Shown here: one piece after another, positions 4,817-18,013 of the stretch
Layout: each line of letters starts with the position of its first letter
How positions within the stretch are numbered: the stretch's first letter is position 1
NCBI GenBank assembly: GCA_007376285.1
Contig: VMFZ01000004.1
Coordinates: forward strand, 300-64,299
Length of the DNA stretch: 64,000 nucleotides
From: Parcubacteria group bacterium Gr01-1014_17
GTDB lineage: Bacteria; Patescibacteriota; Minisyncoccia; Phycocordibacterales; UBA10002
Direction of reading: 5' to 3'
Notes under the pieces: model-generated
The model's database searches: none
What the model was told of the DNA's origin: nothing
Seen by the model: the letters and a program-made list of their open reading frames with translations, nothing else
Made by a program: the position numbers and the translations under genes

Positions 4817-5440
4817 CTATTTCAAAATCACTTTTTCCAAGATAATCGGGGATTTTGGAATATCGCGCGCGCCGACTTCGGCGTGGCTTATGGCGAGCGC
4901 GACATCAAGTCCAGCCGTCACTTTTGCAAAAATCGTGTGCTTGCCCGCGAGCCATGGCGTTTCTTTCGCCGTTACCACAAAAAACTGGCTGCCGTTTGTG
5001 TTAGGCCCTGAGTTCGCCATAGCGACTGCTCCGCGCATAAATTTTTCATCATTTATTTCGTCCGCAAACTGATAACCGGGCCCGCCCGTGCCCCACAACT
5101 CGCTATGCGTGTCGTCTTTGGAAAGCGGGTCGCCACCTTGAATCATAAAGTCCGCAATCACGCGATGGAACTTGGTGCCGTCAAAAAAACCTTTCTCGAC
5201 AAGAGCGATAAAATTTGCAACTGTCTTCGGCGCTTTGTCGTGCAAAAACGAAATCTGAACCGAGCCGTAGTTTGTTTTGAGCGTTGCACCGCTCCACTGC
5301 CTTGCGACGCGCTCCGCGCCGTTTGCTTCTATTGCCTGCTTTACATCTTTTGCGCCATTAGCAAAATACCACCAGAGCCCAAGTGCCGCGGCAACCAACA
5401 CCAGCGCAACAATAAATGGAATTCGAAATTCTTTCATCAT
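4817..5440 (-). CDS. cyclophilin-type peptidyl-prolyl cis-trans isomerase, membrane-anchored
   Basis: FHRVIADFMIQGGDP motif. The N-terminal TM helix follows the internal MMKEF start; the upstream part of the track ORF is probably untranslated. Confidence 0.8.
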   Translation of the reverse strand: MMKEFRIPFIVALVLVAAALGLWWYFANGAKDVKQAIEANGAERVARQWSGATLKTNYGSVQISFLHDKAPKTVANFIALVEKGFFDGTKFHRVIADFMIQGGDPLSKDDTHSELWGTGGPGYQFADEINDEKFMRGAVAMANSGPNTNGSQFFVVTAKETPWLAGKHTIFAKVTAGLDVALAISHAEVGARDIPKSPIILEKVILK

Positions 5441-5441
5441 A

Positions 5442-5909
5442 TTATTTCTTCCACCACTTCCACTTAATAGATGGCACTTTGAAACGAGGCATGCGGGGCA
5501 TCTTGAAGCGCGGCACGCGCACATACTTCTTGCCCGTGCCATACCAACCGCGAAGCATTTCCTTCACGGCGCGCCGACTACGGCGCAAAAACGAAATATA
5601 TCTTCCCTTCGCGCGGCCGAGCCCTGTCTCAAGCTCATCGCGCGCATCACTGATTGCCGTATGAATATCGCTCCGCTCCGCAACGGCGCGGAATGTCCCG
5701 CGCCGCGAACGAATGTTAAACTCGGCGCGGAATATATCGCCTTTTTCATGATGATGCGTCGTGCGACCCACCTCAATTTGCACCTTGAGCGTCGGGTCGT
5801 CAAGAGCAATCAAACCCGCGAGCGACAAAAAGCGGCGCTCCACAAACTCGCGCAACTCCGGCGAGAGCTCTATGTTGGTTGCTTTTATGTTAAAAGAAAG
5901 CGGCAACAT
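5442..5909 (-). CDS. hpf: ribosome hibernation promoting factor (S30AE/HPF family)
   Basis: N-terminus FNIKATNIELSPELREFVE is typical of HPF/RaiA. It has a basic C-terminal tail. Confidence 0.75.
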   Translation of the reverse strand: MLPLSFNIKATNIELSPELREFVERRFLSLAGLIALDDPTLKVQIEVGRTTHHHEKGDIFRAEFNIRSRRGTFRAVAERSDIHTAISDARDELETGLGRAKGRYISFLRRSRRAVKEMLRGWYGTGKKYVRVPRFKMPRMPRFKVPSIKWKWWKK

Positions 5910-5925
5910 TATTTTCTATTATAAC

Positions 5926-6576
5926 TTACTTTATATTTACTTTGTAACGCGCGATAAGTTCTGTTTGCGCCAACACATACCCTTTCATCTCCGTCAATAT
6001 CTCCGCCTTAGTACTTCCCACACGAAGCGGGAGCGTGCGGCTCAATGCATATACGCGAAATACATACTTATGTTCTTTTTGGTCGGATGGACACGAACCA
6101 CCATATCCGATTTTTCCCCAAGAATTAAGGCCTACTCTACCCGGCGGCTCTTTGCCTTCAGGAATTTCGCGAACTGTAGGCGGAATGTTGAACACAACCC
6201 AATGAGTCCGCGTTCCTCCTACTGCATCAGAGTCATCCATAATTAAAACAAGCGATTGCGCTTTTTCCGGCACGCCAGATATAGAGAGTGGTGGAGATAT
6301 ATTTAAACCACTTGTGGTGAGCGCAGTCGAACCATCACAAGTGTAGCGCGCAGGCATCACGCTTCCGTTTGCAAACACTGTACTTGAAAGCGCAAATGCT
6401 TGTTTCTTCGGTTCTGCGTTTATTTCAGCGCTTCCAATTCCTGCAACTTGCTCGGTACTGGGTGGTGTGGAAAGAAATTTTATAAACCCATCAAACCACG
6501 ATGTGCCCGACGGGTTAAACGCGAGCAAAGAAAACAAAAGTGTGATTCCCAAAATAATTCCTCCAGCGAGTTCCAT
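5926..6576 (-). CDS. YbhB/YbcL family PEBP-like protein, membrane-anchored
   Basis: PEBP motifs SLVLIMDDSDAVGGTRTHWVVFNIP ... GYGGSCP ... HKYVFRVYAL. Confidence 0.7.
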   Translation of the reverse strand: MELAGGIILGITLLFSLLAFNPSGTSWFDGFIKFLSTPPSTEQVAGIGSAEINAEPKKQAFALSSTVFANGSVMPARYTCDGSTALTTSGLNISPPLSISGVPEKAQSLVLIMDDSDAVGGTRTHWVVFNIPPTVREIPEGKEPPGRVGLNSWGKIGYGGSCPSDQKEHKYVFRVYALSRTLPLRVGSTKAEILTEMKGYVLAQTELIARYKVNIK

Positions 6577-6597
6577 TCTTGTCTTATAACACAAAAA

Positions 6598-7182
6598 TTA
6601 CTTGCGCGCAACCTTGAGCGCATTCCCCCACCACGCAAGTTGCGCGAGCATTTCATCTGCGGACTCGGTAAGCGTGTCGGTTTTGAGCTTGCCGCTTTTA
6701 TCAAGCAACCCCCAGAAATTTTGGATGTGCACAGCGTTTCGGATAGGCGCCATTTGAAGTTCAATCGCCACGAGCCGCAGTTGTTCAACAACGCGCGCGC
6801 CACCAACGCCACCCCAACTCACAAATCCAACCGGCTTGTTGTTCCATTCCGCGTACGCATAATCCAGCGCGTTTTTCAACACCGCAGGATATCCGTGATT
6901 GTATTCTGGCGAACAAATAATAAACGCGTCTTTTTCTTTTATTTTCTCCGCCCACTTTTTAACCGCGGGGTTTTTGTAGTCCGTTCCCCCCATAAATGGC
7001 GACGACGACTGGTCAAAAAATGGTAACGGGTAGTCGCGCAAATCCAAAAGCTCCGCCTCAATGCCCACGCGCTTGTTCGCCTCGCCATATATCCAGCGCG
7101 CGGGCTGTTCGCCAAACCGCCCCTGCCTCGTGCTCCCCACAATTACTCCAACCTTCAACTTTTTTCCACTTTGTTTTTTCAT
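6598..7182 (-). CDS. NAD(P)H-dependent FMN reductase (flavodoxin-like fold)
   Basis: KVGVIVGSTRQGRF ... FIICSPEYNHGYPAVLKNALD. The start is taken at the internal MKKQ. Confidence 0.75.
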   Translation of the reverse strand: MKKQSGKKLKVGVIVGSTRQGRFGEQPARWIYGEANKRVGIEAELLDLRDYPLPFFDQSSSPFMGGTDYKNPAVKKWAEKIKEKDAFIICSPEYNHGYPAVLKNALDYAYAEWNNKPVGFVSWGGVGGARVVEQLRLVAIELQMAPIRNAVHIQNFWGLLDKSGKLKTDTLTESADEMLAQLAWWGNALKVARK

Positions 7183-7297
7183 AGAATGTAAATGATACCA
7201 TACGCGCTTATTTTTCCACCACAACCCTCCTACTTTCCTAGGAATGTAGGAGGAACAGCACAACATTCAATACGCCACCCGTGTGGCGTATTACGAC

Positions 7298-7603
7298 TTA
7301 CAGTAAACGGTAGGTTACATAGTGGCCTACCTTACCCACTTGCTCCACCTTGCCCTCGCGCTCAAGTTCGTCTAAGTAGCGCACAGCGGTGCGTGGAGAT
7401 ACGCCGAGCGCGGCGCGGATTTCGGTGTTGGAGAGTTCGCGTTTATCTTGAAAAAGAGAAAGTATTTTTTGCTTGCGCGCCTGTTTTTGCGACGCTGTCT
7501 CAATCGCCGAGGCACAAATACCGACAACCTGCTCCCTCGTTCTCCTTGAGAGCAAAAGAACAATAACAACAATCCCGATGATGATTAAAATTATTTGCGT
7601 CAT
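7298..7603 (-). CDS. small membrane-anchored winged-helix DNA-binding protein; last gene of the R-M island operon
   Basis: N-terminal TM helix plus wHTH NTEIRAALGVSPRTAVRYLDELEREGKV. It lies 9 nt downstream of the res stop. Confidence 0.5.
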   Translation of the reverse strand: MTQIILIIIGIVVIVLLLSRRTREQVVGICASAIETASQKQARKQKILSLFQDKRELSNTEIRAALGVSPRTAVRYLDELEREGKVEQVGKVGHYVTYRLL

Positions 7604-7612
7604 TGGGTTAGT

Positions 7613-9922
7613 TTATTTATGCTTTTTTATCGTCTCAACAATGTCGTTTGTTTTCACCTTTTCCGCCAGCAAAAATTGAAACCGCTCACCGCTCAGTTCC
7701 GCCCATTTCTCGCCAAGTTCTTTTTTATAGTTCGTATCTTCCGAACCTTTCAGTTGTCCGCCTTTGTATTCAATTAAAAAGATATCTCCATTTTTTGTAC
7801 TTACCACGAAGTCGGCGAAAAATCGCGCCTTTTTCCAGCCGCTCAAACAGAAACCACTGTCTTTCGGATTTCGCACCCACCATTCAACATTTTCCAAATT
7901 ATCAATCTTTTTTATGAACTCAATCTCTTCTTTGTTTAAGTAGTCCGCTTTATCGTAGACGCACTTGCTGAACGGTTCGCGTGAAATACGCGCAAAAGAA
8001 AACTCTTGCGGGAAAACAAAACTCTCCCCATTTGATTTCAGCATCCCTTTTTTCTCTAAATCCACAAATCGCTTTCGCGCCACTTTCTCAATAATCGCAT
8101 CAAGCGCGACATCTAGTTTTTCTTTTAATTCATATCGCACGCGATTGAGCGTCTTAAGCGACACTCCTTCCTTTTGAAGCAACCCAGCCAGCACGCGCCC
8201 AACGAACGCTGACATTTCTTTCTGCGAAATAAACTCTCGTCTTACTTTCTTACAGAGCCACGCGATAAGCCGTTCAATGTTTTCTCCTCCCCATTCGTCA
8301 GACACAGTGTATGTCCCTAACTTTTCTCTTACCAACTCGCCTTTTCGGTTGAAATCAATTTCAATCATCTCGCTCGCGCCGCTACCGACAGAAAATCCTA
8401 TATCAGCCGCCACTCCCACAAGCAGAGGCGCGTTTCCGATAATATCTTCCACATAGTCAAGTTTCCTCCACACGCCGTTTTCTTTTTGCATATTAATATA
8501 CGGCAATTTTATCTCTTCGCGCACTTTCTTTTGCGCGATACCGCCTCCAAGTGCAACTCCACCGTCTTCAATTTCTATCTGCTCGTAGCCGTTTTTCTTG
8601 AGTGCTTCAATAACTGCATCCGCCGTTTTGGTAAAACTGTTTGTTGCACCGAACACATACGCTTTGTTAAGTTCCTCCGCCGCGTGCTCCCGAACATACG
8701 GCAAACGCATTACCCGCCCGATGGTTTGCTCCACCGAGAGCGCGGCGCCAAGATTGGAAACAGACACAAGAATATACGCAAAGGGACAGTCCCACCCCTC
8801 TTTAAGCGCATTGACGGTAATAATGTAACGAATCGGGCAGTCGCTCTTCAAGAGTTTTTCCCCATCCGGCAAGTCGTCATTTTTTGCCGTTTTAATCGCA
8901 ATTTCTCCTTCATCTATTCTCGCCTCATCAACCAGAAACTTCTTAATCTGCTGAACAAACACCCGTTTTTCGCTCTCTTTTTCTTGCTCCGCCTGTATGA
9001 GCATAATCGGGCGAATATATCCGGTTTTGTTTTTGTCTGCCGACTCTTCCAATTCTTTCCGTTTTTTTATGCCCGCCAAAATTGTCTCTTCCCACGGCGT
9101 TACATTCAGCAAACGAATCGGCATCTTTATCATCTTTTGCTTTTGCAATTCCCGCGCCTCTATTTCAAGTAAGATATTGCTCTCGGCGCGCGGCGTTGCC
9201 GTGAATTCAAGCACAAAAGATGGATTCAGCACTTGTATCGTCTCAAAAGACAAGTCCGCTCCGATATTGTGCCCCTCGTCCACCACCACAAATGGATTAT
9301 GCAAACGAATCACATTCGCCAAAGAAAAAACAACCTCGTTATTTTTGCTTTTTTGCAAAAGCGGAGCCACTCTTTCCGGCAAGTCCTCAAAATGCCCCAT
9401 CAGTTCTCCATTGCTCTGAAATACTTTCAGCGCGTCTCTCTGCTCCCGCCGAAACGCGCTCAAGGTTGAAACGACAATGCACACATTTTCCGCAATGTCG
9501 CTTTTCTTGATTGTTTTCGCTTCGCCTACATTAAACACCTTCACCTTCGCGTCAAATCGCGCGTCAATCGCGCTACGAATATCATTAGTGCGATTTTTGA
9601 GCACGCGAAGCGTTTGTTTCAGAATCGCGTCAGACGGCACAAACCACATAACTAAACCAGCATCCCCGCGCTCTTTCAGAAATGAGTCAAAAATAACACC
9701 AACGGAGTGCGCCGCGATGAGCGTTTTGCCTCCGCCGGTCGGCACTTTAATGCATACAATCGGCGCGTTGTTTTCGTCAGAAAAATCCTGATACTGCCGC
9801 TCCGAAACGCTTAATTTTCCAAACGCAAAACGCGCGCCGTCTTCCGGCGGATATTTTTTGCATTCCACTGCATACTCGCGCAGTTTATCCAGACAATCCT
9901 GTTGGTATTTTTTGAGTTGCAT
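7613..9922 (-). CDS. res: Type III restriction endonuclease Res subunit (SF2 helicase plus endonuclease)
   Basis: Walker A VPTGGGKTLIAAH and DEAH box VVVDEGHN; 769 aa. Its start overlaps the gene X stop in a TAATG arrangement. Confidence 0.85.
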   Translation of the reverse strand: MQLKKYQQDCLDKLREYAVECKKYPPEDGARFAFGKLSVSERQYQDFSDENNAPIVCIKVPTGGGKTLIAAHSVGVIFDSFLKERGDAGLVMWFVPSDAILKQTLRVLKNRTNDIRSAIDARFDAKVKVFNVGEAKTIKKSDIAENVCIVVSTLSAFRREQRDALKVFQSNGELMGHFEDLPERVAPLLQKSKNNEVVFSLANVIRLHNPFVVVDEGHNIGADLSFETIQVLNPSFVLEFTATPRAESNILLEIEARELQKQKMIKMPIRLLNVTPWEETILAGIKKRKELEESADKNKTGYIRPIMLIQAEQEKESEKRVFVQQIKKFLVDEARIDEGEIAIKTAKNDDLPDGEKLLKSDCPIRYIITVNALKEGWDCPFAYILVSVSNLGAALSVEQTIGRVMRLPYVREHAAEELNKAYVFGATNSFTKTADAVIEALKKNGYEQIEIEDGGVALGGGIAQKKVREEIKLPYINMQKENGVWRKLDYVEDIIGNAPLLVGVAADIGFSVGSGASEMIEIDFNRKGELVREKLGTYTVSDEWGGENIERLIAWLCKKVRREFISQKEMSAFVGRVLAGLLQKEGVSLKTLNRVRYELKEKLDVALDAIIEKVARKRFVDLEKKGMLKSNGESFVFPQEFSFARISREPFSKCVYDKADYLNKEEIEFIKKIDNLENVEWWVRNPKDSGFCLSGWKKARFFADFVVSTKNGDIFLIEYKGGQLKGSEDTNYKKELGEKWAELSGERFQFLLAEKVKTNDIVETIKKHK

Positions 9923-10755
9923 TATTGCTCTTTTTTTAGATCGTAATAATAGTTGCCAGCATAGGCAGAACCTATTGGGAAATTCTCAAATTCGCTTTCA
10001 GCTAATACTATCAGTGTTCGACTATTTTTTTCATATTTCATTAAGTAATAATGCTTTTCTTCGTCGCCTGTAGAATCTTTATAACCAATAACTAGATTTA
10101 TCAAATTTCCATCTTCCCTTAACCACAAGATATCCTCCTTATTCTCAAGATTCAATTCAATACTTCTGGATATTCCAGGTCCGATATCCCCCATCGTAGT
10201 AGGTACAAGCATTATCCCGCTTTGACCTGTTTCAGGAGCACGCACTTCTAAAGTCAAGAAGTGGCCTGGAACCGCTCTATATTCAAAAGCTTTTTGTCCC
10301 AAATCAGGACTATCTTCAAATTTTGCAAAAACAAAAAACACATCCTTAGCTACAGACTTTCCTGGATTCAAGAGCTTAAAATTTATAGTTGTGTTGCCGT
10401 CATAACTTATGGAATCCAAATTAATATAGGGTCTATTGGCTGCTTTGTACATCTCAACCCCCTGTATGAAAGAGGAGATTCCTACCGAAGCGGTTACTAA
10501 AGTCAGAAAGACCAATGCACAATTTAACCAAAATGTCCTTCTTTGATATTTAAGTAGGATATATTGCTCTATATAACGGGAAGATGGGTCAACATACCAA
10601 CTTGTAGTAGTGCCGTTTTTCTCAGATGTATTAGCGTAACTCTGTTCCTCCTTAGAAGCATGACGAAGAGCGTCAAACAATTCCTTATCTGAAGACTTTG
10701 GGTTGAGCAATTTTGCTACATTTTTACCTTTATTAAACAATTTCGGAATGTTCAT
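9922..10755 (-). CDS. uncharacterised single-pass membrane protein encoded between mod and res (gene X)
   Basis: 277 aa with one TM (FWLNCALVFLTLVTASVGISSF). It is very AT-rich and translationally coupled on both sides. I recognise no homolog. Confidence 0.6.
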   Translation of the reverse strand: MNIPKLFNKGKNVAKLLNPKSSDKELFDALRHASKEEQSYANTSEKNGTTTSWYVDPSSRYIEQYILLKYQRRTFWLNCALVFLTLVTASVGISSFIQGVEMYKAANRPYINLDSISYDGNTTINFKLLNPGKSVAKDVFFVFAKFEDSPDLGQKAFEYRAVPGHFLTLEVRAPETGQSGIMLVPTTMGDIGPGISRSIELNLENKEDILWLREDGNLINLVIGYKDSTGDEEKHYYLMKYEKNSRTLIVLAESEFENFPIGSAYAGNYYYDLKKEQ

Positions 10756-10756
10756 A

Positions 10757-12334
10757 TCAATATACCCTTACTTGGTAAGGGATTTGCTTAAAGGTGATAT
10801 TGTAATCATTCAAAATCTCCTCACTCAAAAGGCATTTATCCGCATAGACAACTTTTTCCTCGCCGTCTTTTTTCATACCTTTGAGCGCGGTGCGGTTCAA
10901 GATATTGTCGTCCTTCTGCTTGAATAAAAGATAGTATTCGGTGCCGCTATGCTCTCCGATAAACGCGCCTTTGATTTTCCGCTTATCAATATGTGAAAGC
11001 GTCTCGGTAAAATACACATAACTCGCCATTTCCTCAAACGACACTTTCTCGTTGATATTTCCGTCCGCCTTAAAAAGCGGTACGCCAAGTTCCGCGTACT
11101 CAAAATCCCCCTTTCCTAACTTTTTCGCTACGCGCCGCACTCGTTCTTGCGTAATCTCCCGCGCAATTTTCTTTTCCATTTCAACCAAAATAAACTTGCG
11201 ATCTCCGCCGTCTTCTTTATTCAATTCCATAACTGCATGCGCTGTTGTGCCGGAACCCGCAAAAGAATCAAGGATAAGAGAATTTTTATCACATGTTAGC
11301 TCAATTAAATACTCAATCAATTCTATTGGTTTTGAATAGTTAAAGACTGCTTCTCCGAAAATATCTTTCAACAGTCTATTTGACTGGGTGGTTGAATATT
11401 TTGAAATAACACCTATTGGCTGAATCAATCGGTCTATCAAGTTACCTTCGTTGTCACAATTTAAGTATTGTTTTGTGTACACAGCCCATTCATTGTTTTT
11501 ATCTTGTTTAATAACAACAAAATCATTTTTTGTTCCCCAAATCAATTTTTCTTTTCCCCATCTCCAACGGCTTATCTTTTTAGAATCCTTATTCGGATAA
11601 ATCAACTTACCATCGGGTGCTTTAATTGGATAGTCTAGGGATTTTACATAACCAAGACTTGCACTATCTAATTTTATTAGTTGATATTTACCTCTTGTTG
11701 AGACATACTTATCGGCCAATTTATAACGGTCTTCGTCTTCAACGGGTAAGCCGAATATTCTTGAATTTTTTATCTCTTTCGCATATACCAAAATATACTC
11801 GTGTTTTATTCTGAAAAAGTTACTGTCAGATTTTCCTCCTCCTTCTTTGTTTTCCCACACAATATTCGCAACAAAATTTTCCGAACCGAAAATATCGTCC
11901 ATAATCATTTTCAGGTTGCAGTGCTCGTTATCGTCAATGGAAATAAAAATTACGCCGTCGTCGCGAAGCAGTTGGTGGAGCAATTTCAAGCGCGGGTACA
12001 TCATACAGAGCCACTTGTCGTGTCGCGTTAAATCCTCGCCTTCGGGACCCACCACCTTTCCAAGCCATTCGCGGATGTGCCCGGAATTAACTCGGTCGTT
12101 ATACACCCACTTTTCATTGCCGGTGTTGTACGGCGGGTCAATGTAAATGCACTTCACTTTTCCGTAATAAAACGGCAGAAGTGCTTTCAACGCTTCAAGA
12201 TTATCCCCTTCCACGATTAAGTTCTCGCTATGCTCTCCGAGCGACAGCGATTTGTTTTTCCGAAGCAGGCGGAACGGCACCTCCTTATCGTGCCCCACCA
12301 CCTTATCTTTTCCTATCCATGTAAATAACGGCAT
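10757..12334 (-). CDS. mod: Type III R-M DNA methyltransferase Mod (beta-class N6A/N4C MTase)
   Basis: DPPY motif IYIDPPYNTG followed by FxGxG ILDSFAGSGTT. The start is taken at MPLFTW, 1 nt after the doc stop. Confidence 0.85.
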   Translation of the reverse strand: MPLFTWIGKDKVVGHDKEVPFRLLRKNKSLSLGEHSENLIVEGDNLEALKALLPFYYGKVKCIYIDPPYNTGNEKWVYNDRVNSGHIREWLGKVVGPEGEDLTRHDKWLCMMYPRLKLLHQLLRDDGVIFISIDDNEHCNLKMIMDDIFGSENFVANIVWENKEGGGKSDSNFFRIKHEYILVYAKEIKNSRIFGLPVEDEDRYKLADKYVSTRGKYQLIKLDSASLGYVKSLDYPIKAPDGKLIYPNKDSKKISRWRWGKEKLIWGTKNDFVVIKQDKNNEWAVYTKQYLNCDNEGNLIDRLIQPIGVISKYSTTQSNRLLKDIFGEAVFNYSKPIELIEYLIELTCDKNSLILDSFAGSGTTAHAVMELNKEDGGDRKFILVEMEKKIAREITQERVRRVAKKLGKGDFEYAELGVPLFKADGNINEKVSFEEMASYVYFTETLSHIDKRKIKGAFIGEHSGTEYYLLFKQKDDNILNRTALKGMKKDGEEKVVYADKCLLSEEILNDYNITFKQIPYQVRVY

Positions 12335-12335
12335 A

Positions 12336-12767
12336 TTATTTTTCAGATTCTTTAAAGTCCTCCATATAAAGACCGACAAACTTCTGTACTGCATCAACCG
12401 TTGCGTCTTTAACATGCGCATTACTCTCCGCAACCCACTTCGCAAAGTTATAGAGTTCTTGATTGCTCACCCGAAGCCATTTCTCATTCTTATACAAGAA
12501 ATATAGGAGCGTCGTAACTGCAATTCTCTTATTGCCATTCTGAAAAGGGTGATTCTTGATGAGAAAATAAAAAAGCACCGAGGACTTTTCAATAAGCCCT
12601 TGATACAGATATTTCTTGTCAAATTTCTGAAAGGGGGCGATAAGGCAACTTTCCAAAATGTTTGGATTTCGTGTTTTAAATTCCGGAATCGGCTCATTCC
12701 ATGTCATCCATTCTTTCGCCAGCGTGTGAGCGATATATTCAACTTCTGTAATAGAAATGGGTTTCAT
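12336..12767 (-). CDS. doc: Fic/Doc family toxin (death-on-curing)
   Basis: Fic motif HPFQNGNKRIAV; 143 aa. Confidence 0.85.
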   Translation of the reverse strand: MKPISITEVEYIAHTLAKEWMTWNEPIPEFKTRNPNILESCLIAPFQKFDKKYLYQGLIEKSSVLFYFLIKNHPFQNGNKRIAVTTLLYFLYKNEKWLRVSNQELYNFAKWVAESNAHVKDATVDAVQKFVGLYMEDFKESEK

Positions 12768-12769
12768 AA

Positions 12770-13039
12770 TTATTCCTTTCCAAGCAAACGAAGTGCTTCA
12801 CCATATTCTCTTATGGTTTTTGCGACAGACGCTTCAATATCGTTCTTTTTTTTGTCTGTTAATTCTCTGCCGAGTATTCGGTTGAGCTCATCGTACGCGA
12901 TAATGTAGTTCCTACCAACTTTTTGCGCTTTAATATCGCCACTTTGTATTTTATTAAATACAGCAGTTCGGCTTATACACAAGATTTTAGCCGCTTCCGT
13001 TGCAGATATATACTTTTGAGTTTTATTTTCCATAGTCAT
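12770..13039 (-). CDS. HTH (excisionase-like) DNA-binding protein, putative antitoxin partner of Doc
   Basis: ISATEAAKILCISRTAVFNKIQSGDIKAQKVGR HTH; its stop is 2 nt before the doc start. Confidence 0.55.
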   Translation of the reverse strand: MTMENKTQKYISATEAAKILCISRTAVFNKIQSGDIKAQKVGRNYIIAYDELNRILGRELTDKKKNDIEASVAKTIREYGEALRLLGKE

Positions 13040-13124
13040 ATTATAATCGTGTTAACTTAATAGTCAAGTGTGAACATATGTTAACTTGTGTATAACCGTA
13101 TTTACCGATACGACATACCGCCGC

Positions 13125-13817
13125 TTAAAGCAATCCTTTTTCCTTAAAACTCAAAAACTTATTTCCAGCCACGATAATATGATCCAGCACTTCTATTCCC
13201 ATAATCTTTCCCGCTTCAACGAGCCGCTTGGTTGTCTCTATGTCTTCCTTTGACGGCTCAGTATCGCCCGATGGGTGGTTGTGGGCAAAAATTACTGACG
13301 CGGCTTTATTTTTGATTGCCTCCGCGAACACCTCGCGAGGATGAACAACACTCGCATTGAGTGAGCCGATTGATACCTCCGCTATTGAGTGGTTTCTGCT
13401 GTTGAGGGCTATGCTGTAAAAATGCTCTTTGTGGTAGTCCTTGAGTTTACTTTTCACAAGCCGACATACTTTTTCGGGGTCAGTGAGTTCTTTGTTTTTG
13501 TATGACGGAGTTTGTGTAGACAATCGCCGTCCAATCTCAAAAACCGCTTTTATTTGCGTTGCTTTTGCTAATCCAATTCCTTTGATTAAAGACAATTCCT
13601 CAATGCTTGCCTCAGCTAATTTCTGCAAACTGCCGAATTGCGATAATAGTTTTTGTGCCGTTATGGAAACCGATTCGCCGGCAATACCGCGACCCAAAAT
13701 AACCTGCAATAATTCTTGCGCCGATAGCGCTTGCTCGCCAAACTCCACCAATCGTTCGCGCGGTCGCTCTTCTTTCGGTAAATCGCGAATCGTGAATGAC
13801 TTAATCATAGAATACAA
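13125..13817 (-). CDS. radC: RadC-like JAB/MPN domain protein
   Basis: JAMM motif HNHPSGDTEPSKED and a helix-hairpin-helix N-terminus. Confidence 0.85.
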   Translation of the reverse strand: MYSMIKSFTIRDLPKEERPRERLVEFGEQALSAQELLQVILGRGIAGESVSITAQKLLSQFGSLQKLAEASIEELSLIKGIGLAKATQIKAVFEIGRRLSTQTPSYKNKELTDPEKVCRLVKSKLKDYHKEHFYSIALNSRNHSIAEVSIGSLNASVVHPREVFAEAIKNKAASVIFAHNHPSGDTEPSKEDIETTKRLVEAGKIMGIEVLDHIIVAGNKFLSFKEKGLL

Positions 13818-13884
13818 TAAATCCTAGCATTTTTTGACACATAAAAACAGCCCCGCTTCGCTCGGGCTTCGGCAGTTACAAGCC

Positions 13885-13929
13885 CCCGCATTTCTTTATA
13901 CCAGTGTTTTGCAAAACACTAGTATAGAT
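13885..13929. repeat. repeat A copy 1 (palindrome ACCAGTGTTTTGCAAAACACTAGT) at the 3' end of the ArsR-like gene
   Basis: near-identical to 14201..14247; it encodes the C-terminal ILVFCKTLV of the regulator. Confidence 0.7.
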
Positions 13930-14168
13930 TCACCGCGGGCGGTGAGCCGGTGAAGTACGCTCGGACCAGAGTTCCGTTTCATAATAAGGCCTGCAATCGC
14001 CAATTTCCGAATGTGGTCGGAAGCATTCTCGTACCCAAGTTTAAGCCGCTTGGTAATAGCGGCAACCGAGAGTTCAGGTTCTTTGTGCAGTAATTCAAGA
14101 ATCTTAATCCGATTGTGATTTGCAAAGCCGCGCACCACGCGCTCCGCTTTCCTATATTCAAAAGCCAT
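13896..14168 (-). CDS. ArsR-family HTH transcriptional regulator (paralog 1)
   Basis: ANHNRIKILELL ... AITKRLKLGYENASDHIRKLAIAGLI; start taken at MAFEYRK. Confidence 0.7.
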   Translation of the reverse strand: MAFEYRKAERVVRGFANHNRIKILELLHKEPELSVAAITKRLKLGYENASDHIRKLAIAGLIMKRNSGPSVLHRLTARGESILVFCKTLV

Positions 14169-14200
14169 ATCTATTATTATACTACCACACATCCCACGTC

Positions 14201-14247
14201 CCCGCATTTCTTTATACTAGTGTTTTGCAAAACACTAGCATAGACAT
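14201..14247. repeat. repeat A copy 2, upstream operator candidate of the ArsR-like gene
   Basis: cccgcatttctttatactagtgttttgcaaaacactagcatagac. Confidence 0.7.
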
Positions 14248-14362
14248 ATCCCATGTCACTTTTTTACAAACAAAAGCAACTGTTTTTTGTGTGGTGAAGC
14301 ATTTGACATATTGAGTTGGCTATAGTACTATCTTCTCTAGAAAATATTATCAGTGAGGTTCT

Positions 14363-14881
14363 ATGAGATTTGAAAAAACAAATAAGTTCTTCATAACTGG
14401 GTGGCATTCATTCAAACAAAACTTCGTTGTACAACGTATCGTTCTTGCAATTCTTTTGTTTGGCGCAGGATTCAACATTGGTCTTCCTCTTGTTGTGGAA
14501 GGAACGCGAATGGAATTTCTGTTCCATGTGTGGTTTATCATTGTTACTATGCTGTGCCTCGGTATTCACATTGGTTACGCGCTTCGATATCGGCCGGAGG
14601 AAAAAAATATTTTTTTGCCCTTTGTGTTTCCGGTTGAGTTTCTGGCTCCATTTTTTTTCATCGTCGGTGGGCTTGCAACAGCGCGGGTGCTTATCTACTG
14701 GACCGTGTATGCAAAGTCCTTCGGGTGGGAAACAGTACGCCGGCAAATCTACTTTGACGGAAATGTGTTCCTAATCTGCTTCATCCTTGGCACATATTGG
14801 CTTGAACTTGGGCTTGCACGCATGCGCGGCAAAAAATCGCTGCGCATATGGCCATTCATACTCAAAGCAAATAAGAACTAA
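14363..14881 (+). CDS. hypothetical polytopic membrane protein
   Basis: 172 aa with 4-5 hydrophobic helices. Confidence 0.45.
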   Translation: MRFEKTNKFFITGWHSFKQNFVVQRIVLAILLFGAGFNIGLPLVVEGTRMEFLFHVWFIIVTMLCLGIHIGYALRYRPEEKNIFLPFVFPVEFLAPFFFIVGGLATARVLIYWTVYAKSFGWETVRRQIYFDGNVFLICFILGTYWLELGLARMRGKKSLRIWPFILKANKN

Positions 14882-14890
14882 AAGCAATTC

Positions 14891-14919
14891 GGCACGGCGA
14901 GATGGTCTCGCCGTGTTTT
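14891..14919. terminator. hairpin ggcacggcgagatggtctcgccgtg followed by a T-tract
   Basis: perfect stem followed by ttttt. Confidence 0.6.
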
Positions 14920-15061
14920 TCATATTTTATTTCGGCCCGCACTTTTCACCCGACAAAAACAGCCATGCTTTGCTGAATCTACGCAGGACAAGCCGCCCAT
15001 CCGCCCGCTTTGAAACCCTCCAAAACTCTATGGAACCCTTCGCCCGAAGGGTCCCCTACAA

Positions 15062-15092
15062 AACATTCTCACTTTCTTAAGAATGTGAGAAT
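15062..15092. repeat. repeat B copy 1 (30-bp palindrome ACATTCTCACTTTCTTAAGAATGTGAGAATGT)
   Basis: three copies in the window (15062, 15682, 15990); this one overlaps the tag 3' end. Confidence 0.75.
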
Positions 15093-15670
15093 GTTTTTGT
15101 AATGTCGTTTTTACGGAAACACCGCTCCATATGGTCGTTCACCATCCCCACTGCCTGCATATGTGCATATAGCGTTGTAGGACCGAGAAATCGAAAACCG
15201 CGCGCTTTGAGGTCGTGCGCCCAGCGAATTGCCTCGTCGCTCGTCTGACGATAATCTTTGATTGTTTTAATTCTGTACTGAATTGGCGTACCGCCGACAA
15301 AACCCCACATATATTTTGAAAAATTACTAAATTCTTTCTGTATCTTCAGAAATCTTTTTGCATTGTTAATTGTCGCTTCTATTTTCGCGCGGTTGCGCAC
15401 AATACCGGCGTCGCCAAGAAGCCGCACCACATCTCGCTTTTCAAACGCTGCAATTTTCTTTGGGGAAAAATCCGCGAACATTTTTCTGAAATGCTCGCGC
15501 TTATGCAAAATCGTGCGCCAACTTAACCCCGCTTGAAAGATTTCCAATACCAAGAATTCAAAAATCTTTCGGTCTTCATAAAGCGGAACGCCCCATTCCG
15601 TGTCGTGATACTCCTTCATACGCGCATCATTCTCATCTACCCACGCGCATCGTTTTCTTTTTTCTTCCAT
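15077..15670 (-). CDS. tag: DNA-3-methyladenine glycosylase I
   Basis: EYHDTEWGVPLYEDRKIFEFLVLEIFQAGLSWRTIL is typical of Tag. Confidence 0.85.
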   Translation of the reverse strand: MEEKRKRCAWVDENDARMKEYHDTEWGVPLYEDRKIFEFLVLEIFQAGLSWRTILHKREHFRKMFADFSPKKIAAFEKRDVVRLLGDAGIVRNRAKIEATINNAKRFLKIQKEFSNFSKYMWGFVGGTPIQYRIKTIKDYRQTSDEAIRWAHDLKARGFRFLGPTTLYAHMQAVGMVNDHMERCFRKNDITKTFSHS

Positions 15671-15681
15671 ACAAGTACGAA

Positions 15682-15712
15682 ACATTCTCACATTCTTAAG
15701 AATGTGAGAATG
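15682..15712. repeat. repeat B copy 2
   Basis: aacattctcacattcttaagaatgtgagaatgtt; encodes the KTFSHS C-terminus of ArsR paralog 2. Confidence 0.75.
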
Positions 15713-15971
15713 TTTTTATGAGCTGTATCATACGGTGGCCGTACGGAGAAAGCGAGTGTGCCACTTCCCTGCCGCGATATTTCTTATCAACAAGTCCTGC
15801 ATACACGAGGCGGCGAGTATGTTCAGCAATCGTTTTCAGATTGCAGTCCAAATGCTCTGCTATGCCATCAAGCGAGACGCCCTCTGAAGTATGTATTAAG
15901 AAAAGTATCTGAAGGCGTCGATGGTTCGCGACTCCCTTAAAATGCCGTTCCAATTGTTTAGGTGTTTTCAT
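15696..15971 (-). CDS. ArsR-family HTH transcriptional regulator (paralog 2)
   Basis: ANHRRLQILFLI ... IAEHLDCNLKTIAEHTRRLVYAGLV; homologous to paralog 1. Confidence 0.7.
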   Translation of the reverse strand: MKTPKQLERHFKGVANHRRLQILFLIHTSEGVSLDGIAEHLDCNLKTIAEHTRRLVYAGLVDKKYRGREVAHSLSPYGHRMIQLIKTFSHS

Positions 15972-15989
15972 TCTTATTCATTATACTAG

Positions 15990-16020
15990 CACATTCTCAC
16001 TTTCTTAAGAAAGTGAGAAT
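15990..16020. repeat. repeat B copy 3, operator/promoter candidate between ArsR paralog 2 and typA
   Basis: acattctcactttcttaagaaagtgagaatgt. Confidence 0.7.
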
Positions 16021-16112
16021 GTTGTTATGCGGATATTCAATGTTTGCGTTCTTTTGCATTTTATCGTATTATGAATGTGAAATCGTGGCCGCGAGGCCAT
16101 TTTCATTTGTAT

Positions 16113-17918
16113 ATGCAAGAAATTAGAAACATCGCCATTATCGCCCATGTTGACCACGGCAAAACCACGCTCACTGACGCGCTTCTCGCGCAATCGGGTG
16201 TTGGGAAAGCCGGCGCGTCTATGGATTCAAACGCGCTCGAGCTTGAGCGCGGCATTACGATTTACGCGAAAAATACTTCTATTCCCTACAAAGGCGGAAA
16301 AATAAATATCGTAGACACGCCCGGGCACGCAGACTTCGGAAGCGAGGTGGAGCGCGTCTTGCGCTCCATTGATTGCGTGCTCCTTGTCGTAGATGCACAA
16401 GAAGGACCGATGCCTCAGACGCGCTTTGTGCTTAAGAAATCGTTGGAACTCGGGCTTAAGCCGATTGTCGTTATAAACAAAATGGACAAGACGGCGGCAG
16501 ACGCACAGGTCTTGGAACTTTTTTTTGAACTTGGCGCTACGGACGCGCAGGCAAACTTCCCTATCGTGTACGCCATCGGCCGCGAAGGAGTTGCGAAAAA
16601 GAATTTGACCGATGAATCCAAAGACCTCTCGCCACTTCTTGATACCATTCTGGAACATGTGCCGAATGTCTCTTTGCCGGAACTTGCGGCGAAGCCGCTT
16701 CGCCTCCAACCATTCAATCTCGCGTACGACAACTTTCTCGGCAGAATGGCAGTCGCGCGCGTGTATGAAGGTGTTGTAAAACCCGGAATGAATGTGTTTA
16801 TAAAAAATCAAAAAGGCGAAATACGAAACGGAAAAATCATTAAGCTTTTCACATGGAACGGAATGGAAAAAAACGAGGCGGCAGAGGTAGTGGCTGGAGA
16901 TATCGCGCTCGTTGCTGGGCTTACCAACATTGAAATCGGCGAGACCGTGTCTGCTGAAAAAGATGCGGATGTGCTCCCCACCATTTCAATTGACGAGCCC
17001 ACGATTGAACTGCAATTTCTCGTCAACAATTCGCCGTTCGGCGGCCGCGACGGAAAGTTCGTGACTTCGCGCCAAATTCGCGACTACTTGGAGCGCGAGC
17101 TTGAAGTGAATGTGGGGCTCAAGGTGGACTTCTCTTCAAATGAATTCTTCAAGGTACTCGGGCGCGGCGAACTCCACATTGCGATACTTCTAGAAAATAT
17201 GCGCCGCGCGGGCTACGAAGTGCAAGTGTCACAACCGCAAGTTATTATCCGCGAAGAAATTGTAAGTAAGGAACCACTTGTGGTGAGCAAAGTCGAACCA
17301 TTTGAAGAAGTAATTATAGACACGCCGCTTGCGTACCAAGGTGTTGTTATTGAGAAGCTTGGCCGCCGCGCGTTTATCATCAAAAACATACACGAGCACA
17401 ACGGCTCAGTTCGTCTCACACTGGAAGGCCCGACGCGCGGGCTCTTGGGCTATCGCAACCAGTTTGTGGTAGACACGCGCGGCGATGGAATTATGTCGTC
17501 GCGCGTCGTCGGCTTCAAGCCGTACGCGGGCGAAATTTCAAAACGCGCAGTTGGTTCTATGCTCTCAATGGCAACCGGAAAAGCGCTCGGCTACGCGCTC
17601 TGGGGTTTCCAAGAACGCGGCATACTTTATATAGGACCCGGAACGGAAGTGTATGAAGGAATGGTCATAGGCAATACTTCAAAAGGCGAGCAGATGTCGG
17701 TAAACCCGACCAAAGGCAAACAACTCTCCAATGTCCGCGCTTCTGGCACCGACGAAGCGATAGACCTTGTACCGCCATACGAGATTACAATTGAACGCGG
17801 ACTGGAAGTAATGGCGGAAGACGAATATCTGGAAATTACTCCAAAAAGCGTGCGCCTACGGAAAAAATACCTTACCGAAATAGATCGCAACCGCGCGAAG
17901 CGCAAGGAGGGGAAATAA
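16113..17918 (+). CDS. typA: translational GTPase TypA/BipA
   Basis: [25 protein letters not shown]; ~600 aa EF-G-like. Confidence 0.9.
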
Positions 17919-17940: not shown

Positions 17941-18013
17941 TGGACCGTACCGGTTTCGAACCGGTCACCTTTGCTATGCCATAGCAACGCTCTACCAAAT
18001 GAGCTAACGGCCC
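17941..18013 (-). tRNA. tRNA-Ala (GGC)
   Basis: cloverleaf with G3:U70, anticodon loop AUGGCAU, T-loop UUCGAAA; no encoded CCA. Confidence 0.85.

Follow-up and report, generated by a model that had tools for sequence, protein, structure and literature searches.

We analyzed a 64,000-nt stretch of contig VMFZ01000004.1 (hereafter the window, to which all positions of the locus refer), a chromosomal locus in the metagenome-assembled genome (MAG) of a tiny, groundwater-dwelling Parcubacteria member of the candidate phyla radiation (CPR). Seven open reading frames (ORFs) on its minus strand, namely radC, HTH, doc, mod, X, res, and TM-wHTH (HTH, helix-turn-helix; wHTH, winged HTH; TM, transmembrane), were found exactly where an initial annotation of the sequence had placed them (Table 1). 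Six of these genes, encoding an HTH_17 protein, a Doc-family toxin, the methyltransferase (Mod) and Res of a restriction-modification (R-M) system of Type III, the uncharacterized protein X between the latter two, and TM-wHTH, form one coupled unit. The composite put forward by that annotation, in which one operon joins Type III R-M to an HTH-partnered toxin of the Doc type and to an uncharacterized protein, stands. The translational coupling that it extended to all seven genes nonetheless stops short of radC: the top-scoring promoter match of the region falls within the 85 nt that separate this gene from HTH.

Gene content and layout of the locus

Direct reading of the sequence corroborated the tight junctions previously listed. 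A single nucleotide separates doc from mod (TAA-t-ATG) and mod from X (TGA-t-ATG), X and res overlap in a TAATG arrangement, doc starts 2 nt after HTH and TM-wHTH 9 nt after res, while 85 nt lie between radC and HTH. The AT-rich composition ascribed to the region was also evident, with a G+C fraction of 0.42 (X, 0.365; HTH, 0.367; doc, 0.387; mod, 0.406; res, 0.455) and the 5-kb minimum across the whole window beginning at 10001; the remaining window, however, scored 0.49 rather than the 50-55% attributed to the backbone. Simple repeats of the phase-variation type are missing from the locus, and Rfam returned no match within 6500-16500. An integrase-mediated island is not supported, since no tRNA adjoins the region (the closest lies at 17941) and none of the ORFs located between 4.8 and 21 kb was seen to encode a recombinase.

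Hidden Markov model (HMM) searches upheld the domain assignments, with X remaining devoid of matches in Pfam, PADLOC, NCBIfam, and PHROGs. Mod matches PDLC03644 over its full length (1.4e-161) and N6_N4_Mtase (1.5e-41) and, among structures, EcoP15I Mod (4zcf_A, 1e-47) and 6k0w (1.2e-50). Res yielded PDLC03650 (1.9e-89), ResIII (5e-16), and EcoP15I Res (4zcf_C, 4.3e-07), and carries GGGKT at residue 63, DEGH at 215, and a C-terminal D704...E718-Y-K720, its nuclease being supported at the motif level only. The catalytic motifs of both proteins are intact, and both can be assigned to Type III R-M. Their genes keep the canonical order, with the 834-nt X in place of a direct mod-res junction.

The last gene had been described as wHTH-TM, but the order is the reverse: a hydrophobic helix (residues 1-19; Kyte-Doolittle maximum of 2.94 at residue 1) precedes the winged helix (HTH_24, 1.7e-08; HTH_11, 6.9e-08). 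Such a putatively membrane-anchored wHTH within a Type III cassette is new, and no counterpart was found downstream of res in related loci. Two hairpins follow this gene. The first, 5 nt after the stop codon, lies inside the segment that varies between relatives and is likely the operon terminator. The second is a palindrome, already pointed out at this border, that is unique in the window and gave 0 matches in 100 shuffles.

Table 1. Features of the locus, with positions in the window
Feature	Position	Strand	Description
radC	13125..13817	-	230 aa; UPF0758_N + HhH + RadC JAB; NF000642 (1.9e-74) and Pfam
Promoter and putative operator	13040..13085	-	11 of 12 match; conserved boxes
HTH_17 protein	12770..13039	-	89 aa, or 87 aa from ATG 13033
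Doc-family toxin	12336..12767	-	143 aa; HPFQNGNKR at residue 73
Type III Mod	10757..12334	-	525 aa; DPPY at 66, FAGSG at 358
X	9922..10755	-	277 aa; N-terminal helical domain, TM helix, Ig-like beta-sandwich (predicted)
Type III Res	7613..9922	-	769 aa; SF2 helicase motifs and nuclease-like C-terminal motif
TM-wHTH	7298..7603	-	101 aa; hydrophobic helix, then winged helix-turn-helix
Hairpin, likely terminator	7268..7293	-	11-bp stem; dG -16 kcal/mol, z -2.3
Palindrome CCTCCTAC...GTAGGAGG	7226..7253	.	dG -16.7, z -3.4; right border
Variable segment	7253..12264	-	mod body, X, res, TM-wHTH, hairpin; blastn limits against L100

The HTH_17-Doc head and the segment behind it

The gap between radC and HTH contains TTGACT-16-TATAAT, the top sigma-70-like match of positions 7000-14400, with 11 of 12 bases (-35, 13067-13062; -10, 13045-13040). 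Boxes flank the -35 element on both sides: GTTAAC at 13085-13080, GTTCAC at 13075-13070, and GTTAAC at 13056-13051. We aligned this gap with the regions upstream of HTH_17 genes from four other contexts (five loci in all), which encode HTH proteins of 55-94% identity. The GTTAAC/GTTCAC boxes and a near-invariant TTGAC are kept across the window and the five loci, and the -10 element invariably precedes a conserved ATGGAA start by 6 nt. Because both ATGGAA and its distance to the -10 are conserved, the second ATG, at 13033, is probably the true HTH start. The operon is probably transcribed into a leaderless mRNA and repressed by its own HTH protein, which would bind the boxes.

The HTH protein is of the excisionase/MerR type (Pfam HTH_17, 1.2e-06; TIGR01764, 5.9e-07), and its PADLOC matches are the N-terminal HTH of Type II methyltransferases (MTases) and mad1. 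An HTH_17 gene also lies directly upstream of doc in six of six other Doc contexts examined, and we regard the window protein as a putative autorepressor and Doc antitoxin. Doc was identified by TIGR01550 (1.8e-14; 54 bits against a cutoff of 38.65) and further matched Fic (Pfam, 7.8e-11), the Doc-like toxin phrog_577, and a death-on-curing family protein (PDB 9vzc); its motif at residue 73 fits HxFx(D/N)(A/G)NKR. We retrieved 4720 Doc relatives, mainly from CPR, and none from IMG/VR. The two-gene HTH_17-Doc module is shared by many CPR bacteria.

This pair resembles P1 Phd-Doc in its small Doc with the same motif, in the small DNA-binding gene 2 nt before it, and in the antitoxin-then-toxin order. 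It differs in that the upstream gene is of the HTH_17/excisionase type, not of the Phd/YefM fold expected for a Doc toxin-antitoxin (TA) module, and in that the pair heads a longer operon. C-protein R-M systems share with the window a small HTH gene in first position, inverted-repeat boxes overlapping the promoter (in the window a putative operator), and a probably leaderless transcript; C-gene transcripts are often leaderless. C proteins, however, belong to the Xre/HTH_3 family and serve mainly Type II systems, whereas the window protein matches HTH_17, not HTH_3. An HTH_3 gene was scored upstream of mod in 5 of 38 relatives.

Comparison with related genomes revealed that the swappable part of the locus is smaller than the island initially delimited at 7298-13817. 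The closest Doc relative (94% identity) belongs to Candidatus Taylorbacteria, where the locus occurs in several independent assemblies in the order BipA, ArsR, radC, HTH, Doc, a 28-aa ORF, Mod (687 aa), Res (788-795 aa), and FMN reductase. Protein identity to the window is 88% for BipA, 93% for radC, 94% for both HTH and Doc, and 61% for FMN reductase. In blastn against one of these contigs (L100; related loci carry L numbers), 88.5% nucleotide identity extends over 13851-12265 and homology returns at 7252; the different Mod and Res of L100 lie between these breakpoints. The left one falls at about codon 24 of mod, whose earlier codons are conserved backbone, and the right one is the palindrome, 27 of 27 bases of which are identical in Taylorbacteria, where homology resumes. 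As judged from this alignment, radC-HTH-doc and the first ~24 mod codons are backbone, and only ~7253-12264 is variable.

Remnants of former genes mark the left border. The 28-aa ORF of Taylorbacteria is a remnant of the window-type Mod N-terminus (MPLFTWIGKDKVVGHDKDVPFRL); an unrelated Type III mod gene starts at an ATG overlapping the stop codon of this remnant. Similarly, in a second lineage, radC-HTH-Doc is followed by a third Mod type in L112, and by a 36-aa remnant of the L112-type Mod, a Type II restriction endonuclease (PDLC03572, 1.6e-57), and a D12-class MTase in L109-L111. In the window, L112, and L104/L105, a gene for a DNA-acting enzyme starts 1-3 nt after HTH-Doc. L099-L103 and L109-L111 have a short mod remnant as the next ORF, and in L106 HTH-Doc is followed by an unknown 167-aa gene. 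The doc-stop/mod-start junction is kept even after cassette replacement.

The comparison identifies radC-HTH-doc as a conserved platform before an R-M exchange site. What is new is that such a site, marked by 5' remnant ORFs and a conserved palindrome, is preceded in CPR bacteria by a conserved HTH_17-Doc leader, which frequently has radC with it. Defense hotspots and integron-like platforms share with it a fixed promoter platform (here radC-HTH-doc), a fixed border (here the palindrome), and differing R-M cassettes. Unlike them, the window locus yielded neither an integrase nor attC-like sites, and the breakpoints fall within the opening 21-27 codons of the former mod, leaving short coupled remnant ORFs.

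Two further contexts of the pair were recorded. In L104 (4717-7658) and L105, HTH_17-Doc is followed 2 nt later by DUF2779 (Cas4/RecB-like), together with an RNase_T exonuclease, which may be another nuclease cassette placed after this leader module. In L113 (309-3070), HTH_17-Doc has a 140-aa IMS (DinB) fragment on one side and a full-length dinB on the other, looking as if inserted beside or into a duplicated dinB 5' end.

RadC is 93% identical in L100 and 80% in L109, and in each its gene lies directly upstream of HTH-doc. We considered radC as a part of the mobile unit and discarded this: it is a conserved backbone neighbor, transcribed separately, that is associated with the unit. The closest Res proteins among related loci come from L002 (3464-7800) and L010 (1267-5683), of Omnitrophota and Planctomycetales, where the order is a 49-50% identical radC, a TA pair immediately ahead of mod, mod, and res. 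The pair is Gp49/HTH_3 in one and AbiEii in the other, and of the two only L010 encodes a large serine recombinase beside radC. These two loci hint that radC travels with such R-M islands.

The mod-res junction and the gene X family

The interruption of mod and res by an extra gene had been presented as exceptional. We surveyed 80 species-level loci with Mod relatives of 40-53% identity, in 75 of which res comes after mod. The two genes are adjacent (spacing of -1 to +131 nt) in 51 of these 75 loci, and the other 24 carry an insert of 250-1900 nt. The inserts include RhuM (6), Fic (3), HEPN, HEPN_AbiU2, DUF3800, DUF4276 with or without AAA_21, Bro-N, Uma2, PemK with DUF2281, RelB, 23S_rRNA_IVP, DUF2442, DUF7387, and an IS4/5 transposase. 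Because almost a third of the related loci hold inserts at this position, the mod-res junction is a known kind of accessory-gene slot, and its occupation by X is not unusual in itself.

X is predicted to consist of an N-terminal helical domain, one TM helix (residues ~75-97), and an immunoglobulin (Ig)-like beta-sandwich (112-274), which is inferred to be extracytoplasmic. The model has no recognizable enzyme fold, and the protein lacks conserved His, Cys, Ser, or Glu. An exhaustive phmmer search of 1.84 billion representatives uncovered seven relatives (designated by P numbers), plus additional weak matches to Ig-repeat giants (Big_9/CARDB). Word-indexed searches with X or its alignment recovered only X itself and P0006, and a metagenome scan returned only two loci, both already known. 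The X-family profile found nothing meaningful among PDB sequences, the fold search in BFVD gave low TM-scores (0.43 at most), and no relatives appeared in IMG/VR or in phage or plasmid collections. A single-sequence AlphaFold2 model of X was set aside for its pLDDT of 43.

The family is modular. X and P0002 combine the cytoplasmic N-domain, the TM helix, and the beta-sandwich; P0003-P0006 are devoid of the N-domain; P0007 has the N-domain and TM helix with a different C-domain; and P0008 has the N-domain and TM helix only. Of eight contexts, with the window as one of them, five have an X-family gene directly behind the gene of a DNA methyltransferase. P0007 (L094) comes after a Mod fragment 82% identical to the window Mod, with a 4-nt overlap; P0004 (L097) and P0008 (L098) follow Mods of 53% and 42% identity after gaps of 4 and 2 nt, respectively; and P0006 (L090) starts 35 nt after a Type II MTase (PDLC03390, 3.2e-77), which is preceded by an Eco57I-like gene and a 53-aa ORF. 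As for the remaining contexts, P0005 (L086) follows a Fic gene (PDC-S04/SoFic-like) among TA genes, P0002 (L081) comes after a 74-aa ORF and a 502-aa protein with a weak GHKL-ATPase match, and the contig of P0003 (L085) is too short to show neighbors. The initial annotation had made its case depend on X homologs occurring beside R-M or defense genes, and R-M association was indeed found once their neighborhoods were examined. The family and its linkage to methyltransferase genes are new.

In L094 (1343-1680), P0007 is followed by a 29-codon ORF that keeps the first 15 Res residues (MQLKKYQKDCLDKL) and then stops, with a Fic_N-like ORF next. This Res-start remnant is the same 5'-remnant insertion signature as at the doc-mod junction.

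Two known kinds of accessory protein were compared with X. One TM helix followed by a beta-sandwich is an architecture compatible with superinfection exclusion (Sie)-like proteins, which are small, prophage-encoded, anchored in the membrane with an extracytoplasmic domain, and block the entry of DNA; X has no PHROG match and no relative in IMG/VR or in phage or plasmid collections, and its BFVD matches reach TM-scores of 0.43 at most. PrrC-like proteins, in turn, pair an ABC-ATPase with a HEPN anticodon nuclease; X has a beta-sandwich fold and no Pfam or PADLOC match.

Proposed function, alternatives, and flanking features

Most parts of this locus have precedents. With Type III R-M systems (EcoP15I/EcoP1I), it shares the Mod motifs, the Res helicase and D...ExK, and the mod-before-res operon; unlike them, it has a gene for a 277-aa membrane protein between mod and res, a Res of 769 aa rather than 970 aa, an HTH-Doc pair at its head, and a membrane-anchored wHTH at its end. 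It also lacks the simple-repeat tract of phase-variable Type III systems. The module had been considered undescribed as such, but R-M operons combining DOC or RhuM toxins have already been reported as multi-pronged defense, PrrC-EcoprrI being the model case (Anantharaman et al. 2013, PMC3710099). Like these, the window has extra genes inside and at the head of an R-M operon and combines a DOC-superfamily toxin, and relatives of its Mod hold RhuM, Fic, HEPN, or AbiU2 in the mod-res slot. The published cases are, however, mainly concerned with Type I systems and HEPN RNases, whereas in the window the embedded X has no recognizable enzyme fold or known family, and Doc, paired with an HTH_17 protein, is encoded upstream of mod. 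The R-M system is known, as are the Doc toxin and the stacking of toxins on R-M, and the locus is a variant of this "stacked defense" layout, not a new kind of system.

The explanation that we favor, and hold to be probable though well short of certain, is a six-gene operon made of a conserved HTH_17-Doc head and an exchangeable, intact Type III cassette carrying X and TM-wHTH. Transcription would begin at the promoter with the GTTAAC-flanked -35, where the HTH_17 protein would bind the boxes and repress the operon, an autorepression with analogues in TA and C-protein systems. The message would be leaderless, and the downstream genes would be translated by coupling. By analogy with EcoP15I, Mod would methylate self DNA and the Mod-Res complex would cut unmethylated incoming DNA. 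Doc would be a translation-arresting toxin with the kinase-type Fic fold, as P1 Doc, restrained by the C-terminal tail of the HTH protein in the manner of Phd-Doc; it could serve as an addiction module or as an abortive back-up upon collapse of operon expression. X shows no recognizable enzyme fold and lacks conserved His, Cys, Ser, or Glu; most likely, it would be a non-enzymatic, envelope-level accessory of the methyltransferase machinery, acting as a sensor, exclusion factor, or tether. Its cytoplasmic N-domain might contact the R-M proteins, and its fast-changing Ig-like ectodomain would face outside and sense or exclude phage at the surface. At the membrane, TM-wHTH may anchor DNA or the complex.

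Several observations weigh against this explanation. The HTH protein might be a regulator only, or an antitoxin only. The X model was built on an alignment of eight sequences, with its topology taken from the positive-inside rule alone, and the role of X is read from only eight family members, several of them on contigs of 1-2 kb. One of these, the full-length P0002, is encoded downstream of ddl with neither an R-M nor a Fic gene beside it. Moreover, X, doc, and TM-wHTH are all absent from the 80 loci of Mod relatives; because none of these carries any of the three genes, the combination is idiosyncratic and could be a by-product of a recombination hotspot rather than a co-adapted system.

One rival reading does without any functional integration: promoterless genes would gather at a recombination hotspot, X and TM-wHTH would be unrelated cargo of a cell-surface or regulatory nature, and HTH-Doc would be a selfish TA pair lying upstream by coincidence. 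Variation in locus contents between related genomes and the marked heterogeneity of the mod-res inserts, a transposase among them, speak for it, as do the 80 Mod relatives and P0002. It accounts poorly, however, for X-family genes that overlap a Type III mod, or lie 2-4 nt from one, on three additional independent contigs, with one more relative 35 nt after a Type II MTase, which is unlikely by chance in a family of eight. Nor does it anticipate a doc-mod junction that survives cassette replacement, or the DNA-acting enzymes and mod remnants found immediately after HTH-Doc. We consider such a lack of integration unlikely.

X could alternatively be a guard-type abortive-infection effector following the PrrC logic, kept inactive by Mod-Res and triggered by a phage anti-restriction factor to damage the membrane. 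Its TM helix, its tight coupling within an R-M operon, the toxin and Abi families (HEPN, AbiU2, RhuM, Fic, and PemK) that occupy the same slot in relatives, and the published PrrC paradigm (PMC3710099) would all fit a guard. A single TM helix with a large Ig-like ectodomain and no recognizable toxin or enzyme fold, the lack of PADLOC or PHROG matches, and the existence of family members without the cytoplasmic domain needed to sense the R-M complex argue to the contrary, and we give this role of X a rather small chance.

An assembly chimera, invoked at the outset as a possible refutation, would have the metagenomic source and the sharp G+C drop inside the region in its favor but is hardly credible, given that the radC-HTH-doc-mod 5' junction recurs in several independent assemblies of the related Taylorbacteria, mod precedes an X-like gene in three independent short contigs (L094, which keeps the res start, L097, and L098), the BipA and FMN reductase flanks are syntenic with Taylorbacteria, and database records of the X protein come from several sources.

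The locus shows a concrete route of R-M diversification in CPR genomes of roughly 1 Mb, consisting of a fixed head, a fixed right border, and exchangeable cassettes, with the short 5' remnant ORFs as a record of earlier occupants. This is of interest because CPR bacteria mostly lack CRISPR-Cas and are thought to depend on R-M and abortive systems (PMC4742961). The small X family, made up of unannotated membrane proteins, may represent a previously unseen type of R-M accessory. Current views of defense islands are not overturned by these results.

A bolder proposal, which we rate as improbable, is that the radC-HTH_17-Doc trio is a dedicated capture and expression platform for promoterless CPR DNA-targeting defense cassettes, and/or that X and TM-wHTH act as membrane tethers for the Type III enzyme and DNA. 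Were the former true, a leaderless autoregulated promoter would drive cassettes exchanged within the first ~25 codons of the resident gene, with the doc coupling always kept, in an integron-like R-M turnover without integrase. Were the latter true, restriction would take place at the site of DNA entry.

Several minor features surround the operon. The listed FMN reductase ORF (6598-7266) has an N-terminal extension that crosses the palindrome; because the Taylorbacteria gene encodes 190-197 aa and the Pfam match begins at residue 38, the sequence suggests the ATG near 7181 as the true start. A 30-nt direct repeat (93% identity) at 6306-6335 and 17272-17301, 11 kb apart in the PEBP-like and BipA genes, has its copies on either side of the low-G+C region. 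We rejected these copies as an att pair, since both lie in conserved genes syntenic with Taylorbacteria.

Upstream of radC lies a second variable segment (13852-15679) that the syntenic Taylorbacteria contig lacks; it encodes an ArsR-like protein, a membrane protein, and a Tag glycosylase. Long, near-perfect palindromes of two families form its borders and flank small wHTH genes, the repeats lying at 13879-13928, 14195-14244, 15057-15098, 15676-15717, and 15985-16026. The first two are copies of the palindrome that the initial annotation called repeat A and placed at the border of its island; the repeat is real, with its second copy newly located, but it bounds this other segment. One palindrome family is also present in L100, at about 5180-5226 and 5507-5565. 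The palindromes around the segment could be operators, bidirectional terminators, or cassette borders.

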